A DNA stretch of 20,000 nt from an uncultured virus (IMG/VR IMGVR_UViG_3300020045_011964). Lineage: Duplodnaviria > Heunggongvirae > Uroviricota > Caudoviricetes. The notes below the pieces were generated by a model. That model saw only the letters and a list, made by a program, of their open reading frames with translations. It was not told where the DNA came from and did no database searches. The stretch lies in IMG/VR virus record IMGVR_UViG_3300020045_011964; one strand, 5' to 3'. The translations under genes were made by a program, and so were the position numbers. Position 1 is the first letter of the stretch; the number at the start of each line of letters is the position of its first letter. Below, piece by piece: positions 7,402-20,000 of this stretch.

Positions 7402-8547
7402 CTACACTTCCGCTTTAGCCTGTGCCTGATGGAGGCCGCAGTAACCATTCGGCGACGGACTTCCTTTACACGGAGTTCCCGCTTTGGTAAAACCCTTGCA
7501 TCTGTTTTCCGTTTCAAGCTCCGCGTCCAGAATGGTTTCGGGCTTGAACGGACTTTCCGCATCCACCTTCATCTTGGCTTGCTGTTCTTCCATTTGCTTG
7601 AATCTCAGGTAGCGTTCCCATTCCGTAGGGTCAATGTCCGGTGCATTTTGAACAGGCGGTGGCGGCGGTTGCGGTGCCTGAAATCCACCTTCATTTTGTC
7701 TGACAGCCGTTTGCGCCAAAATATTCAATGCTTCGGTCATTTTGTCCATTTGCTGTGCCTGCTGCTGCTGGACGTTATCGCGGCGTGAGATACCGGTTTG
7801 CTCAAAAGCGATCTCCGCTTCCGGTCCCGCCGTCCACGCCCATCCTTTAGCCTGCGCCTGAGATAATTTTGCGTTAGCGTCATTGGCTTTCCAATTACAC
7901 CAAATCAGAAAATCATCACAGGATTTAATGGCTGCGCTGGCGACATCACGTTCAAAGTCATTGTTTGCCTGCTTATATCTTTCGGCGAAATACTTCTTGA
8001 GGTCGTAAGTCTTTTCGAGAATTACTGCCTGCCCCGAAAGAATATCCATCCAGTTCGGGAATAAAAAAACCTGTGCCTGTGCCGCTTCCTGCACATTCTG
8101 GCAGGGAAGGCGAACAATCCCGGTCGGTTGGTCATTTTTCGGCGCACAGAGACGGTCTATCTCATCAACCGGAAAAAACTGTTTGCGGTAAAGTCCATCC
8201 CATACTCTCCCGCCTTCTTCGCCTTTTCTGGTTCCGCAAACGATTTCACGCCCGTTTTCTAAGATGGAATAGGTTTTAATAAAATGTTCGCGTTGCGACG
8301 GTTTGACGTTAGTTGCCGCTTCCGACTGCATTTGCGGTCTTAATTGGGTAACTTCACAGCGACGGATAAATCCCCGATGCGGTTCAAGTGTCAAAAAGTT
8401 AGTCCGTAAAATCCCGCCCTGATTTAGAAAAGGTTCGCGGGATTTCAGTTCCTTTGAAATCCGGTTGCCGACAAAAAAGACGAAAAACTCGCCCGCCGTA
8501 GCTTTTGTCGGTATCTTAATCTGGTATTCAGCAATTGCCGTAGTCAT
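7402..8547 (-). CDS. Hypothetical protein (381 aa) with Gln/Pro linker and C-terminal C3H zinc motif (DUF5763-like)
   Basis: C-terminus CKGFTKAGTPCKGSPSPNGYCGLHQ. SD AACAGGGAG upstream. Confidence 0.65.
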   Translation of the reverse strand: MTTAIAEYQIKIPTKATAGEFFVFFVGNRISKELKSREPFLNQGGILRTNFLTLEPHRGFIRRCEVTQLRPQMQSEAATNVKPSQREHFIKTYSILENGREIVCGTRKGEEGGRVWDGLYRKQFFPVDEIDRLCAPKNDQPTGIVRLPCQNVQEAAQAQVFLFPNWMDILSGQAVILEKTYDLKKYFAERYKQANNDFERDVASAAIKSCDDFLIWCNWKANDANAKLSQAQAKGWAWTAGPEAEIAFEQTGISRRDNVQQQQAQQMDKMTEALNILAQTAVRQNEGGFQAPQPPPPPVQNAPDIDPTEWERYLRFKQMEEQQAKMKVDAESPFKPETILDAELETENRCKGFTKAGTPCKGSPSPNGYCGLHQAQAKAEV

Positions 8548-8553
8548 ATAAAA

Positions 8554-9435
8554 TTATCTCCCTGTTGTGATCCCGTCACGGGATTCTTTTCTTAGTTTTT
8601 TAGCAAACTGTTCGGTTGCTCTTTCGACATTTTCTTTTGCTTCTCGGTGAATGTCCTTAACAGACGCCCCTTTAACCAACGTCTCATCCGAGACTGCCAG
8701 AAACGGATCCTCCAAAAGAATATGAGAAGCCCGTTCGGTAAATCTCCGCAAAGCCTGATCCTCATAGTTTTCGTTCTGCCGTTCTCTCAGTCTGCGTTCA
8801 ATCGCTGACGGTGAATCGAACGGAGAGTTTTCAGGCTGTTTGATAAATTCCATTCCTTTACGGATTTGTCTGGCAACTTCGACAAACTTCATCGGATCGG
8901 CATAAGTGCCGTAACACGAGACACCGACTTTGGCTGACCTTTGACAGCACCCCAATGAATGATTGGCAATGGTCGCGAACCAAACATAAACATCCGTTGG
9001 CGGAATGGCCGGACGAAAAGGAACTGTCCTTTGCCGTTCCGGGCAATAAAAGCGCGTTGACTGTTCCCAATCAAGCGCGTATTGTTCGGGTTCTAACCGT
9101 GTCAAAACAATGTAACGCGGAACAAAGACATCTTTGACAAATTTTCCGTCATTGGTAAAAACCGATTTGTATAGAACGAACGGTCGTTTTATCTTCTCTG
9201 TCGGTCTGCCGTATAAATCCCAATCAATAAAAATCTCTTTCCAGAAAGACGTATCACCGTTCCAGACGATTTTGGCAATGGATTTATTGTCACGGGTGAC
9301 TCCCAAAACAGAGTCAAGCTCCTTTTGAACCATTGCCAGATATTCTTTTGACTCAGGCGCGGAGTAATCCAACCCCTGCACCCACGAATCGGGATTGTTC
9401 AAACTGACAAAAAATTGTGGTTGAACCGCTTCCAT
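8554..9435 (-). CDS. Hypothetical protein (293 aa)
   Basis: Long ORF tightly packed between neighbours. Contains a His/Cys cluster HSLGCC...SCYG. Confidence 0.65.
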   Translation of the reverse strand: MEAVQPQFFVSLNNPDSWVQGLDYSAPESKEYLAMVQKELDSVLGVTRDNKSIAKIVWNGDTSFWKEIFIDWDLYGRPTEKIKRPFVLYKSVFTNDGKFVKDVFVPRYIVLTRLEPEQYALDWEQSTRFYCPERQRTVPFRPAIPPTDVYVWFATIANHSLGCCQRSAKVGVSCYGTYADPMKFVEVARQIRKGMEFIKQPENSPFDSPSAIERRLRERQNENYEDQALRRFTERASHILLEDPFLAVSDETLVKGASVKDIHREAKENVERATEQFAKKLRKESRDGITTGR

Positions 9436-9437
9436 TT

Positions 9438-9656
9438 TTATTCGTTACAGGCAATCGTGGCATTTGCCAACATTCTTACTAAAGCGATTTGCCGAATCGC
9501 TACCGTTTGGTCGGCACAAGGCGGAGTATTATCCAAAACCACTTGTGCAAAATATTTTCCCGCTTCGGAAATCTTGGCATATCTTTCCGCTTGATCGCCT
9601 TTCGGGGCGTGATATGTGAACAAATTATCTAAATCCTGTGTGCTGTATCCAGCCAT
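9438..9656 (-). CDS. Acb2/Tad1-hairpin-like small protein, candidate nucleotide-signal sponge (72 aa)
   Basis: NLFTYHAPKGDQAERY..I...K.FA..V....P..ADQT.AI......MLANATIA matches the widespread phage FTYHxP...Y..IR...K.LA.....P.SRE..LA...L....MWANA.IA family, which I recall being annotated as Acb2/Tad1-domain proteins. Good GGGAG SD at 7-nt spacing. Confidence 0.7.
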   Translation of the reverse strand: MAGYSTQDLDNLFTYHAPKGDQAERYAKISEAGKYFAQVVLDNTPPCADQTVAIRQIALVRMLANATIACNE

Positions 9657-9662
9657 ATATTT

Positions 9663-9790
9663 TCTCCCTGTTTTTATTCATTTGTATCCCTGTTGCCTGC
9701 AAAGAAACGGAAAGACAAACAGGGATGTAAATTTCCTTCCGTTTCCTGAGTTGAGAGGAGTTGCAGGCTCCCGACCGCAAAACCCCTCAA
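9663..9790 (-). promoter_or_regulatory. Structured intergenic RNA (hairpin plus pseudoknot / alternative anti-SD pairing) between the capsid and Acb2/Tad1-like genes
   Basis: Hairpin at 9751-9790. Stem A 9734-9746 : 9703-9715 (13 bp). Segment B 9717-9726 is complementary to both 9686-9694 and the SD-containing 9665-9673. Confidence 0.6.
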
Positions 9791-9807
9791 ATACCTATAA
9801 ACCTTTA

Positions 9808-11148
9808 TCACACAAGACTTATGCCTTCGGAAATTTGGCTTAACGACGGGGTCGTTAAATTATGGATGTATGCCGAACTGTTCGGTGCGCCACCCATTTT
9901 ATTACTTCCGTCATCACCGCGCATATCAAAAGCAAAGTTGTAGGCTTCGCCCCAATTGCGGTATTTTTCGGTTGAACCGACAAAGTTGGTTCCGACATAC
10001 TGCGTTGCGCCTTCCGAAATTTCCTGCATATCCGACTGACGGTATTCAAAGTAGGAATTCCGGTCTCGCAAGTCAATGAAGTTATCTTCAAAATCCGCGT
10101 CCTGAATAAATTCCGTATCTTCGTCCTCGTAGTTGTTCGGATGTCCGTAAGTGGTATCAGCCTGTCCTTTTTCAGCGTTATAATCCCGCAAGGCATACCC
10201 GAAGGACGCAAGGGTTTTATAGTTGCCAATGGTCAGATGACAAATACGTTTTTTACGCGCATCAACATCATTGGCACGGGTTTGCAGAGAACCTTTAAGG
10301 GTGTCCATTGTGGTCGGATTGACAAGTGCCGCTCCGCCGTCAACCGCACGGGAATTCAAAAAAGCGGTAGTTGAAGCAGAAGTGGAAATGCCCTGATAAA
10401 GCCTCGCGGTTGACGAGAAGTGATAAGCGTGACCGTAGGGAACTTTTTTATAGTGACCGTATTTGACGACTACTTCTCCGGCTGTAATCGTTCCGCCGTC
10501 AGTGATGACAGTGGTTGCGGTTGTCGCCGAAGTTTTAGCGGTGATATAAAAGGTCGCACCGAGCGCATCGGTCGAAGTGTTGTAGGATTGATACAAAATC
10601 CGTTTACCGGCGGTAGTAAATGGCGATACCGCAAGTCTTAAACTACCCTTGCTTCTGCCTCTCGCGGTTCCGTCATTGGTAAAAGTAACGGTTGCTCCCG
10701 AAACGCTTGAGACTACTCCCAATGCTCCGTTGCCCGAACCCAACCGATAATAATTATGGTGCTGCATATAGGTTTTCAAGGCATCGTCACGCAGTTTCGA
10801 CTGGCCCCACGGCAGGTTGCCGTTCATCGCGTCTTTTTCGTGGAAATGCTCGAACTCGACCGTAAATCCGGTAAAGGTCAAACCGACATACATTTTATTG
10901 GTCGTCGGAGCATACATTCTTTCAAATGATGTTCCTCCGTTGTATGGATCAAGGGCGGTTTCGCCGTGAACCAATCCTTCCTGAATAGGAATTTCCAGAC
11001 CCGCGAGTTGTCCTTGTTCGCCCGCCGCTCCGCGTCCTGACTTATACGAATTTTTCGTAACGGCCATTTGTGATTGATATTTAATGATAGTCTTTCGCAA
11101 TTGCGCCCTGACGGCTGCCGAGAGACTCTCGTTGACATTTAGATACAT
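9808..11148 (-). CDS. Major capsid protein (446 aa)
   Basis: Directly follows portal and scaffold. Strong AAGGAG SD, double stop TGA TAA, downstream hairpin. Size fits an HK97-fold capsid with a central beta-rich insertion. Confidence 0.75.
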   Translation of the reverse strand: MYLNVNESLSAAVRAQLRKTIIKYQSQMAVTKNSYKSGRGAAGEQGQLAGLEIPIQEGLVHGETALDPYNGGTSFERMYAPTTNKMYVGLTFTGFTVEFEHFHEKDAMNGNLPWGQSKLRDDALKTYMQHHNYYRLGSGNGALGVVSSVSGATVTFTNDGTARGRSKGSLRLAVSPFTTAGKRILYQSYNTSTDALGATFYITAKTSATTATTVITDGGTITAGEVVVKYGHYKKVPYGHAYHFSSTARLYQGISTSASTTAFLNSRAVDGGAALVNPTTMDTLKGSLQTRANDVDARKKRICHLTIGNYKTLASFGYALRDYNAEKGQADTTYGHPNNYEDEDTEFIQDADFEDNFIDLRDRNSYFEYRQSDMQEISEGATQYVGTNFVGSTEKYRNWGEAYNFAFDMRGDDGSNKMGGAPNSSAYIHNLTTPSLSQISEGISLV

Positions 11149-17137: not shown

Positions 17138-17339
17138 TTATTCTCCTTCTTTTTTTAATAAACTTTTTCAAACCCCGTCGCGATTTACCTAGCGGATACC
17201 CCTTTTGCCGATACTCAATTATAACTAAATGAGCAGCCAAACCGGTCATCAGTCTGACACTGACCGGTTGTTCGTTATGAGTGACAACCGCGCCGGACAG
17301 CTCATTAACAGCATTGGTAACTAATCCTTGATAAACCAT
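17127..17339 (-). CDS. Small basic hypothetical protein (70 aa)
   Basis: Overlaps the terminase 3' end and the next gene start, in the manner of translational coupling. Confidence 0.5.
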   Translation of the reverse strand: MVYQGLVTNAVNELSGAVVTHNEQPVSVRLMTGLAAHLVIIEYRQKGYPLGKSRRGLKKFIKKRRRINAK

Positions 17340-20000
17340 AAAAAATCGTCCTCATTACCTGCATCTTCTTCTAAAAAATCTTTGCCGAACTTTTCTTCCA
17401 GATCAAGTTTGGCAAGCATTGATGCCGCCGCCACTCTCTGCTGAATAGCGTGTGTCATTGTTCCTTCCCTCTGAATTTTTTCCAGATCGTGAGGAAAGTA
17501 TTTTTTCACGGCAAGATCAATTTCTTCTTCCTTTGTATAGGACTCCGCATAAGTTCTGAACCGGTAACAAAGGATTCTCAGGCAATCAATGACCTGTCCG
17601 ATCTGTGTCGGTTCGCCCTTATCGTTAAACCCCCACGTTTGAATTTCCTGCCGGGCGTGATAAAAACTTTGGGGTTCGTTTTCGTTCTCAATTGACGCAC
17701 CGTAAAAATATTTGTCATCAACAATAAAATAAAGATGTGCGCCTTCGGTGCTTCGCTCAAACGGATGATTCTCGCCGGTCGGCATCAGATACCAGTTCAT
17801 TTCTTCGTGACCGGCTAAATTATCCTCTTTGAAAACCGCCACTTTATACGGCAATTTATCACAGATAGTCGAGTGATACTGCTCACTATCACCGTGGAGA
17901 TAAATAACCGGTTCGGTCTCTGTCTGCCATTTTGTCAGACACTTTTTTAACCAATCAAAAAGCGCATACATATTCGCGTCATAGCGTTTGTATTCATCCA
18001 GAACAAACAGTGATTCAGGACAATCCGAATAAGCGGGTGCGCGGGCAACAATAACGGCAGAAGTCGGTTTGGATTGGTCGTTATTGATTTTAACAGCAGC
18101 ATAAACCGCGAACTTGGGCGGCAAAGTAAAGGTTTCCGAACCTTTCCCGAACTTCTCCATAAATTCCGATACCTTGATAAAATTCCGTTGCCATTTATAG
18201 TTTTTAACCACCGTTCCGCGAGTCAGAATTTCGTGCAAAGCATTATAACCATCCCCCGTCGCATCGGCAATGTCATCGTATTGATCCTCTCCCCCCAAAC
18301 CAAAGTCACGAAGCTCTTTCTTAACCTCTTTGTTCCAATTATTGCCGTCCGCATCGTCAGCCACGATAGCCATTCCAACCAATCCTTCATTGACCGCAAC
18401 CGAAAAATTATAAGCACGTTGTTTTTTCGCACCGGATGTCGGACGACCGACAACGGTATGGTTTTTCAAGTCCTGTTGAATGTAATAAACGGTTGAACGT
18501 CCTGCTGCGCCGGGATCAATCGGCACAACAACAATACAATTAGTTCCGTCCTGTTCAGCCAGATATTTTTGGGCACGAACCCGTTCGGCGGTATCAACTT
18601 GTTTGCGGTAAACGTCAAAAATTACCACCCGGCCTGACGCGGTAATACCCATTTTTGCGCCAACCGAATAATCACCGTCATTATCGGTAGCGGCAAAATC
18701 CCAACTGCGAACCATTGCGATACACTCTTTTTCAAGTTCTTTAATTTCTTCGGATGTGAGCATCTTGATCTTACCGACATTAAAGAAATCACCGAATTCC
18801 GACGACGGTCTGCCTTGAAACATTGACAACCAGACACGGTTATTTTTTCTGGATTTATCGTAATAATGAGGCGGCCTGACTTCCGGCCAGATATATTCAC
18901 CAACCTGTCTGCCGATTGGATCGTCAAACCGCTTACCCGTTTCTTCGTGGATGTAGGGTCCGTCGTAAAGAGTCGCATACCGCCAATAATCAAAATCCCC
19001 CGTGTCTAAGAGGTATCCTGCGAGATCGTCGCAATTATGAACCGTCATCCCGCAGGAAATAAAATCGTGACAAGGTGTAGTAATATCCCATACATCACCT
19101 TCATATTCTTCAATTTCAATAGATTTAACCCGCACATACAAAAAATCCTTATCTAACTGAAAAAAACGCGGAAGTGCTTCGTGAGTTTCTTCGCCATTTC
19201 TTAAAAGCCACGGTGCTTGATAAACCGCAACTCGCAATTCGTAAGCTGGATATTTAGACTGAATTGAACTTTCAGGTTTATTTGGATACAACTTTCCGCC
19301 AACAATGGAAGCGATTAAACCCAACTTTAAACATAATCGCTGAAACCCTTTAATTAGAGGAAGGGAACAGGAAGAAAATCGTGCTAAATCTATCTTTCCA
19401 TCCTTTTCATTTTTACTTAAACAGCCGTCTCCCGCCAAATAACCCTTTAATAATTGCTGTGCCAATGTTGGCGGCAAAGTAACCGCCCATTCGGGTAAAA
19501 ATTTATTGATTGCTCCGCATCCGAACTGTTTAACAAAGGCAACCATCTGTTTTGATGAAAATTGCAATTTAACGACTTTCTTATCGGTCTTATCAGGATA
19601 AACACTTAAAGGAATGTCGTATTTGGCTAAAAATTCCCGCACGTCCTCAACAATGTATTGCTCAGTTTCCGAATTGACCGCTAAACCAATATGCTCTTTA
19701 GTCTGCTTACCTTTTCGATTAACCCATCCATCCGAAAGCCAATAGCCGAGAAAACGCCAAAAGGCAGGGTCAAGAACAGGGTTTTCACTGAATTTATGAG
19801 CGTGCGTGCGATTCAAACCCCAAAGTGTAACGTATCTCTGCATTGCCTGACCTGATTTATAGCCAAGTTTGTCAGCAATTTGTTGGCAAGTCATCCCTGA
19901 TTGATACATTTTGGTAAATTCTTCCTGATTAACCTTGTTTTTTTCGCCGGTATTTCTGGAAGGATAAGCAACCCTCGGTTTAGGCGCGTCCGGCCATAGT
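17321..20000 (-). CDS. terL: Terminase large subunit, intein-containing, 5' end outside the window
   Basis: The frame is open from the edge (LWPDAPKPRVAYPS...). After the intein: CDDLAGYLL (from the TRWHxDDLAG motif), DPIGRQVGEYIWPE, WLSMFQGRP, nuclease motifs RSWDFAAT...DYSVG, IDPGAAG and DDIADA. These are Terminase_6/6C-type features. Confidence 0.93.
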   Translation of the reverse strand, partial: LWPDAPKPRVAYPSRNTGEKNKVNQEEFTKMYQSGMTCQQIADKLGYKSGQAMQRYVTLWGLNRTHAHKFSENPVLDPAFWRFLGYWLSDGWVNRKGKQTKEHIGLAVNSETEQYIVEDVREFLAKYDIPLSVYPDKTDKKVVKLQFSSKQMVAFVKQFGCGAINKFLPEWAVTLPPTLAQQLLKGYLAGDGCLSKNEKDGKIDLARFSSCSLPLIKGFQRLCLKLGLIASIVGGKLYPNKPESSIQSKYPAYELRVAVYQAPWLLRNGEETHEALPRFFQLDKDFLYVRVKSIEIEEYEGDVWDITTPCHDFISCGMTVHNCDDLAGYLLDTGDFDYWRYATLYDGPYIHEETGKRFDDPIGRQVGEYIWPEVRPPHYYDKSRKNNRVWLSMFQGRPSSEFGDFFNVGKIKMLTSEEIKELEKECIAMVRSWDFAATDNDGDYSVGAKMGITASGRVVIFDVYRKQVDTAERVRAQKYLAEQDGTNCIVVVPIDPGAAGRSTVYYIQQDLKNHTVVGRPTSGAKKQRAYNFSVAVNEGLVGMAIVADDADGNNWNKEVKKELRDFGLGGEDQYDDIADATGDGYNALHEILTRGTVVKNYKWQRNFIKVSEFMEKFGKGSETFTLPPKFAVYAAVKINNDQSKPTSAVIVARAPAYSDCPESLFVLDEYKRYDANMYALFDWLKKCLTKWQTETEPVIYLHGDSEQYHSTICDKLPYKVAVFKEDNLAGHEEMNWYLMPTGENHPFERSTEGAHLYFIVDDKYFYGASIENENEPQSFYHARQEIQTWGFNDKGEPTQIGQVIDCLRILCYRFRTYAESYTKEEEIDLAVKKYFPHDLEKIQREGTMTHAIQQRVAAASMLAKLDLEEKFGKDFLEEDAGNEDDFLWFIKD
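19034..20000 (-). mobile_element. Intein with LAGLIDADG homing endonuclease (N-terminal splice junction off-window)
   Basis: LAGLIDADG blocks FLGYWLSDGWV and LLKGYLAGDGC. Block F VWDITT. Block G VHN/C, with the Asn codon at 19036-19034 and Cys+1 at 19033-19031. Confidence 0.95.

Follow-up and report, generated by a model that had tools for sequence, protein, structure and literature searches.

Is the RNA leader of a phage anti-defence gene a switch built for that gene, or an older feature of the place in which the gene sits? The question is raised by a 20,000-nucleotide (nt) stretch of DNA from an uncultured tailed phage (IMG/VR record IMGVR_UViG_3300020045_011964), referred to here as the window. 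On its minus strand, a spacer of 151 nt separates the stop codon of a capsid-like gene from the ATG of a 72-amino-acid (aa) open reading frame, an acb2-like gene whose product is a putative cyclic-oligonucleotide sponge. A sequence-only reading of the window had proposed that this spacer contains a pseudoknot switch setting the translation of the sponge gene. The explanation that we prefer, and hold tentatively, is that the spacer is an inherited, structure-set damper of translation belonging to the slot behind the capsid gene, and that acb2 was inserted into this slot. The features on which the argument depends are the following.

9808..11148, minus strand: 446-aa capsid-like gene, probable major capsid protein (open reading frame; stop codon 9810-9808)
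9751..9790, minus strand: hairpin 1, 3' of the capsid stop, in both the minimum-free-energy and the centroid structures
9703..9746, minus strand: hairpin 2, made of stem S1 (A:A') and an 18-nt loop, from folding and pair listing
9746-9734, minus strand: A, GGAAACGGAAGGA, the 5' arm of S1
9717..9726, minus strand: B, AUCCCUGUUU, an anti-Shine-Dalgarno (anti-SD) segment in the 3' part of the hairpin-2 loop and separated from A' by 1 nt
9715-9703, minus strand: A', UCUUUCCGUUUCU, the 3' arm of S1
9686..9694, minus strand: B', AACAGGGAU, a second copy resembling a Shine-Dalgarno (SD) sequence, 8 nt past A'
9625..9681, minus strand: MNKNREKIYGWIQHTGFR, a predicted 18-codon upstream open reading frame (uORF) from an inner ATG of the open reading frame 9625-9780
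9664..9673, minus strand: B'', AAACAGGGAG, SD region for the acb2-like gene, with 7 nt between it and ATG 9656
9438..9656, minus strand: 72-aa gene of the Acb2/Tad1-hairpin family, putative cyclic-oligonucleotide sponge (Pfam, PHROG, profile and model)
8554..9435, minus strand: 293-aa conserved gene, starting 2 nt past the acb2 stop and without an SD in the window

A script check found segments A, B, A', B' and B'' and hairpin 1 exactly where the sequence-only reading had placed them, and a listing of the pairs confirmed 13 pairs for A:A', nine for B:B' and nine for B:B'', interleaved in H-type order. The A:A' duplex (-17.5 kcal/mol) contains two G-U pairs and no mismatches, the duplex energies of B:B' and B:B'' are -12.4 and -12.9 kcal/mol, and every non-Watson-Crick pair is a G-U on the transcribed strand, as had been claimed for A:A'. 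With pairing of B as the second stem (S2), the pseudoknot in the window would have an S1 of 13 bp, a first loop (L1) of 7 nt, an S2 of 9 bp, a second loop (L2) of 1 nt and a third loop (L3) of 29 nt if B'' is the partner or 8 nt if it is B'. The interleaved order A, B, A', B' or B'', with a short junction between the 5' strand of S2 and the 3' strand of S1, was found both in the window and in its closest relative, contig L065.

The pattern is stronger than chance would give. AACAGGGA is present 6 times in the window against 0.73 expected, a number reached by none of 200 shuffles. Pairing between the loop of hairpin 2 and the SD region has an energy of -14.2 kcal/mol, equalled by 5 of 5,000 shuffles of the loop and reached by 4 of the 6,621 other 18-nt segments of the same strand. 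When an anti-SD test was applied across gene starts, p was ~0.01 for the acb2 start and ~0.005 for the start of a 282-aa gene in L065, while 19 of 20 other starts in the window gave p values of at least 0.09. The sole other start to stand out among the 20 is that of a 70-aa gene at 17339 (minus strand), where the SD pairs with the upstream 146 nt at -16.7 kcal/mol (p ~0.01). Furthermore, the whole spacer folds at -49.2 kcal/mol in the sense orientation (z -2.77) and at -33.4 kcal/mol in the antisense orientation (z -0.79); the structure is therefore a property of the transcript.

The phage lineage is rare, as judged by exact-word scans of viral contigs and of the genome collection. Such scans with the capsid sequence, over viral contigs and genome contigs, returned no relatives; a capsid profile run on viral contigs returned none, and blastn of positions 9300-10400 against 50,697 phage records gave no match. 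Capsid relatives were found in four metagenome contigs, and one more, reached via the 293-aa protein, in a metagenome-assembled genome (MAG). One contig, L067, ends before the end of the capsid gene and was left out of the junction counts. The relatives that hold the junction are listed with their capsid identity to the window.

L065: 68%, the closest relative
L066: 64-65%
L074: 49%
L068: 33-34%

In L065, the corresponding spacer is 107 nt long, folds with z scores of -3.77 (sense) and -0.76 (antisense), and contains two hairpins in the order seen in the window, one of which matches the place of hairpin 1. Its hairpin 2 has a 10-bp S1, the base of which (GGAAACG/CGUUUCC) is common to the A:A' stem of the window; the upper stem is different and still paired. 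On the 3' side of the loop, with the 1-nt linker seen in the window, stands an 11-nt anti-SD, ACUCCGGUUUU, which pairs over 11 bp (one G-U) with AAAAUCGGAGU, the SD region for the gene that comes next in L065. This SD region lies 7 nt before the ATG and aligns with B'' in sequence and in register. The dimensions are an S1 of 10 bp, an L1 of 8 nt, an S2 of 11 bp, an L2 of 1 nt and an L3 of 17 nt, and the strength of the loop:SD pairing was reached by 1 of 5,000 loop shuffles and by none of 4,608 other 20-mers of the contig.

MAFFT misaligned the helices of the two leaders, and the pairs were therefore listed by script. At S2 positions 4-6, counted from the linker, the window has G-C, U-A and C-G, and L065 has U-A, G-U and G-C. 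These three positions, together with the upper pairs of S1, are changed on both sides with the pairing kept. The cognate loop:SD energies are -14.2 kcal/mol in the window and -14.5 kcal/mol in L065, compared with -3.5 kcal/mol for the window loop on the L065 SD and -9.2 kcal/mol for the L065 loop on the window SD. Pairing maintained through compensatory changes supports the earlier proposal that B is an anti-SD for the SD of the following gene. The accompanying expectation of conservation and covariation was borne out in part: S1 and the loop:SD pairing are kept in L065 with compensation, but the gene that follows is a different one, B' is absent, and a single relative is involved.

The 72-aa protein itself belongs, by sequence and model, to the Acb2 family, in keeping with the nucleotide-signal sponge proposed by the sequence-only reading, and its function as a sponge is putative. 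Pfam PF24729 (Acb2_Tad1_hairpin), whose gathering cut-off is 27 bits, is matched with 29.6 bits (E 7.9e-7), residues 14-70 covering profile positions 1-58 of 58, and phrog_1454 is matched with E 2.1e-11. Viral contigs contain 64 relatives at 38-63% identity. A 41-sequence profile matches PDB chain 9ptq_A, "Acb2 homolog 43" (E 2.4e-5), with Tad1 chains at E ~0.05 and Vs.4 at E 0.9; the sequence alone found no Acb2 in the PDB. The AlphaFold2 model (predicted local distance difference test score, pLDDT, 91.5) has one short helix (6-12) and two long ones (23-43 and 48-71), the pattern that one study gives for the Acb2 protomer (PMC12043709). Foldseek, run with this model on the PDB, found nothing at E<=0.001, such a search being uninformative for a short helical protein, and a wide fold search returned only generic helical bundles, the best at Z 8.6, which is below the meaningful level for helical models. 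A two-copy complex prediction scored 0.08 against a mark of 0.42, which says nothing either way. The likeness to the Acb2 and Tad1 sponges (Acb2 from Pseudomonas phage PaMx33 gp24, and T4 Vs.4) thus consists of the Acb2_Tad1_hairpin domain and the profile match to "Acb2 homolog 43"; the T4 Vs.4 chain is 89 aa, and the window protein is shorter.

A homolog of the 293-aa gene lies directly behind the capsid gene, without acb2, in all four relatives that hold the junction (L065, L066, L068 and L074), which suggests that acb2 was inserted there. In the simplest history, whose direction is inferred, the slot first had its ribosome-binding site, with its SD, followed by the 293-aa gene, and an Acb2-family gene then entered precisely between this site and the start codon of that gene; in the window the 293-aa gene follows the acb2 stop as UAA-AA-AUG. 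Sequence comparison indicates that the RNA element is older than the acb2 insertion and is not specific to acb2, because L065 has the same element before a different gene and acb2 is absent from four of four relatives. In line with this, among the 62 testable Acb2-like loci of the 64 relatives, an upstream anti-SD was present in none at p<=0.01 and in five at p<=0.05. The idea that the switch evolved to gate the sponge gene is not supported by these results. At Acb2-like loci, the median distance to the upstream open reading frame is 9 nt, and it is at least 100 nt in 12 of 60.

In five more distant relatives (L069-L073), an unrelated 83-aa gene lies between a capsid-like gene and the 293-aa homolog (for example, at 1884-2135 of L069), and the post-capsid junction may for this reason be regarded as a variable slot for small genes. 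A 9-nt direct repeat, GAAUAAAAA (9679-9671 and 9443-9435), flanks acb2. It was considered as an insertion scar and rejected as not above chance; the 20-kb window holds 88 pairs of 9-mer repeats spaced 50-300 nt apart.

As we picture it, the spacer between the capsid gene and the next cistron would be a structured mRNA element inherited within the phage lineage, in which hairpin 2 would expose the anti-SD B at the 3' end of its loop, and B would pair with the SD of the first post-capsid gene. The resulting H-type pseudoknot would hide part of the ribosome-binding site and lower initiation on the downstream cistron relative to the abundant capsid protein. The inserted acb2 would inherit the damped slot, and the 293-aa gene would be translationally coupled to acb2. 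B' would be an extra copy of the ribosome-binding motif, specific to the window and competing for B, that either relieves the damping or represents a leftover start site with a small uORF. Such an element would be a fixed damper rather than a sensor, and a ligand riboswitch is unlikely.

Several observations weigh against this explanation. The ViennaRNA folds used are nested and pseudoknot-free, and among them the A:A' state is best (-49.5 kcal/mol), with forced B:B' at -43.8 kcal/mol and forced B:B'' at -45.5 kcal/mol. In this ensemble B is 66% unpaired and B'' 98% unpaired, and forcing B:B'' costs 4 kcal/mol; because nested folding leaves B'' free, masking of the SD requires a pseudoknot with A:A' and B:SD formed at once. 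The motif paired by B is also common. AACAGGGAG(A) forms the ribosome-binding region at 3 of 22 gene starts, namely those of acb2, the 531-aa gene (12791) and the 381-aa gene (8547), and B would therefore match several sites. Among the more distant relatives, a lone GC-rich, terminator-like hairpin followed by a U-tract occupies the junction in L066 (1328-1390) and L074 (2141-2176), the 293-aa homolog starting 12-14 nt past it with no recognisable SD, and L068 is almost without a spacer. These other arrangements confine the element to a narrow clade. The pseudoknot feature is kept in one of the four junction-holding relatives (L065), two sequences being too few for statistics; with one informative relative, the covariation is anecdotal and not fit for R-scape.

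The last of these points concerns variation within close relatives. Seven public sequencing runs contain little of the stretch, none more than 0.13 of its words, no RNA runs being listed among them, and four public runs were compared with the window as contigs. Run X2 includes one contig of a relative with a near-identical acb2; over this gene its two pieces (records 7 and 8) show 12 differences from the window in 281 aligned positions. This contig joins 9663 to 9696 and skips the 32 nt (9664-9695) that hold B' and B'', although other letters may stand between; since the B'' region is skipped, the SD partner may be dispensable or replaceable. As inferred from bin depths, this contig matches the window only up to 9733 and is unlike it further upstream. 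The leader therefore seems, from these sequences, to be a recombination-prone mosaic that is polymorphic among close relatives.

The alternative that survives best, although we consider it somewhat unlikely, is that the spacer holds ordinary post-capsid terminator, processing or mRNA-stabilising hairpins and that the loop:SD complementarity has no function, with B, B' and B'' being copies of a favoured motif, in either orientation, left by recombination around acb2. Phage T7 has such a post-capsid intrinsic terminator, T-phi, after gene 10, and the hairpins of the window occupy the same place as the post-capsid terminators or stabilising hairpins of tailed phages, after the highest-expressed structural gene. 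The canonical GC-rich hairpins with U-tracts of L066 and L074 at the same junction favour this alternative, as do the motif at 3 of 22 gene starts, the SD left free in nested folding and the polymorphism of the leader in one X2 contig. Because AACAGGGAG(A) serves other starts too, B' and B'' can be regarded as two copies of a house ribosome-binding motif. A scan found no promoter-like site in the spacer, and acb2 is for this reason probably read through from the capsid gene, which also fits ordinary hairpins. However, unlike known post-capsid terminators, neither window hairpin has a U-tract (the letters after hairpin 1 are CUCAGG and those after hairpin 2 UUGCAGG, neither the tail of an intrinsic terminator), a terminator scan of minus-strand positions 9700-9800 reported zero sites, and hairpin 2 carries a covarying anti-SD. 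Functionless hairpins would leave unexplained why the different SD of L065 is matched by a different anti-SD at the same place in the loop with the same 1-nt linker, and why loop:SD pairing of this strength is so rare among shuffles and genomic k-mers.

A further alternative, which we regard as improbable, is a three-way switch that responds to kinetics or translation and that involves B' and the uORF; it amounts to the proposal of the sequence-only reading with the ligand left out. In its kinetic form, B' would capture B during transcription across the 8-nt L3, and B'' would stay free. In its coupled form, ribosomes ending at the capsid stop would melt an outer helix in which the uORF start and the 3' half of B' are buried, and the output of acb2 would follow capsid translation. 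The near-equal energies of B:B' and B:B'' are in keeping with such competition, with B' both transcribed first and nearer. The predicted outer helix (9802-9797:9681-9676) has a high probability, encloses both hairpins and begins 6 nt past the capsid stop; the start codon of the uORF lies within it, with an unpaired probability of ~0.02 in pseudoknot-free folding. This ATG (9681) sits 4 nt past B', the spacing of a real start site, and AUACAAAUG is common to this site and the start region of the 531-aa gene; the uORF is out of frame, overlaps the acb2 start and terminates at 9625, within the 72-aa gene. This alternative is also favoured by a small hairpin that has the same AUCCC/GGGAU pair and immediately precedes the AACAGGGAG SD of the 381-aa gene. 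On the other side, neither B', the uORF nor the outer helix was seen in L065, one X2 contig skips B', and the uORF is a prediction from sequence. An 8-nt L3 over a 13-bp stem would, moreover, be sterically tight, which counts against capture by B', whereas the 29 nt to B'' and the 17 nt of L065 would leave ample room.

The small hairpin just mentioned, AUCCCG-UGA-CGGGAU (8569-8585, minus strand), is separated by 4 nt from the downstream SD of the 381-aa gene and is a miniature of the B/B' pair beside the same SD motif. The L065 homolog of the 381-aa gene has AAAACAGGAG as its SD region.

A fuller form of switch, with three partners, in which B chooses between B' as a decoy (with the uORF) and the real B'', set either by ribosomes that end at the capsid stop and melt the outer helix or by a small molecule or protein of the infected cell, seems to us very doubtful; B' as a decoy is at odds with its absence from L065 and with the X2 contig that skips it. 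If true, such a switch would time sponge production to late-gene translation or to an immune signal, and it would be the first known riboregulator of a phage anti-defence gene.

How, then, does the element compare with known pseudoknots that control translation? Riboswitches of the SAM/SAH (S-adenosylmethionine/S-adenosylhomocysteine), SAM-II/V and preQ1-II classes sequester the SD. As in the window, the 3' side of a loop pairs in these classes with a downstream purine-rich SD across a junction of 0-1 nt that permits coaxial stacking. The S1 of the window and L065 is much longer, however, at 10-13 bp; neither a ligand nor a ligand pocket is indicated, there is no Rfam match, and two sequences represent the element. 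For the SAM/SAH riboswitch, one study describes such an H-type fold (PMC7367207). The pseudoknot operators of the phage T4 gene 32 and Escherichia coli L20 and S15 mRNAs likewise place a leader pseudoknot near the ribosome-binding site, where it sets translation initiation (see PMC535899, PMC3014915, PMC1888825). These operators act via a protein repressor that binds the pseudoknot, whereas none was identified for the window, and the gene behind the element is not the same in the window and L065. An Rfam scan of the 20-kb window at the gathering score gave no matches and a relaxed scan gave best matches of E ~0.3 to unrelated families. A ligand- or protein-responsive riboswitch or operator, bound by cyclic nucleotides or by a phage repressor that recognises AAACAGGGAGA, is highly improbable: its interleaved alternative pairings do resemble the expression platforms of small pseudoknot riboswitches, and this 11-nt motif is identical at the ribosome-binding sites of three genes, but no scan against Rfam gave a relevant match, nothing points to a ligand, the loops of the window and of L065 are unlike outside B and show no conserved unpaired pocket, the element precedes a non-defence gene in L065, and no comparable upstream anti-SD (p<=0.01) occurs in the 62 other Acb2-like loci.

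Upstream of the spacer, the terminase large subunit (17321-19909) is followed by genes of 884, 531 and 446 aa. The nearest ESM Atlas clusters to the 446-aa protein are named phage major capsid protein (score 0.98, template-modelling score 0.73), and SU10_MCP is found in 34-37% of their members. The protein has no match in Pfam, PHROG or the PDB, profile searches included, and our own structure model is unusable (pLDDT 30). Gene order and the names of the ESM Atlas clusters make it probable that the gene encodes the capsid. In the 862-aa terminase large subunit (minus strand), residues 288-576 match terminase PHROGs, and residues 39-170 match PHROGs annotated as endonuclease and anaerobic ribonucleotide reductase; the latter part may represent the insertion of a homing-endonuclease or intein-like segment. 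In the 381-aa protein (7402-8547, minus strand), the 30 C-terminal residues match DUF5763, a cysteine-rich motif, and the rest of this protein and the 293-aa neighbour have no family match in Pfam or PHROG. The sole relative from the genome collection, L074 (G001), is an 11,988-bp contig binned in a Candidatus Hydrogenedentota MAG, and the other 134 of 135 genomes of this phylum contain no capsid relative, which makes Candidatus Hydrogenedentota a weak hint of a host at best.

To our knowledge, very little is known about the expression of sponge genes, and none of the titles and opening lines of abstracts that a search of the Acb2, capsid and CBASS (cyclic-oligonucleotide-based antiphage signalling system) literature listed mentions RNA control of acb2. 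Sponge proteins such as Acb2 act stoichiometrically, and for this reason their amount and timing decide whether a phage escapes CBASS or Thoeris. Because the evidence rests on two sequences, the value of the element described here is that of a hypothesis and not of an established class. As a small RNA element outside Rfam, it makes it possible to test, in a phage late operon, whether a hairpin-loop pseudoknot sequesters the SD. An Acb2-family gene in a slot that was already under control would, in turn, be an example of an incoming anti-defence gene borrowing existing regulation.

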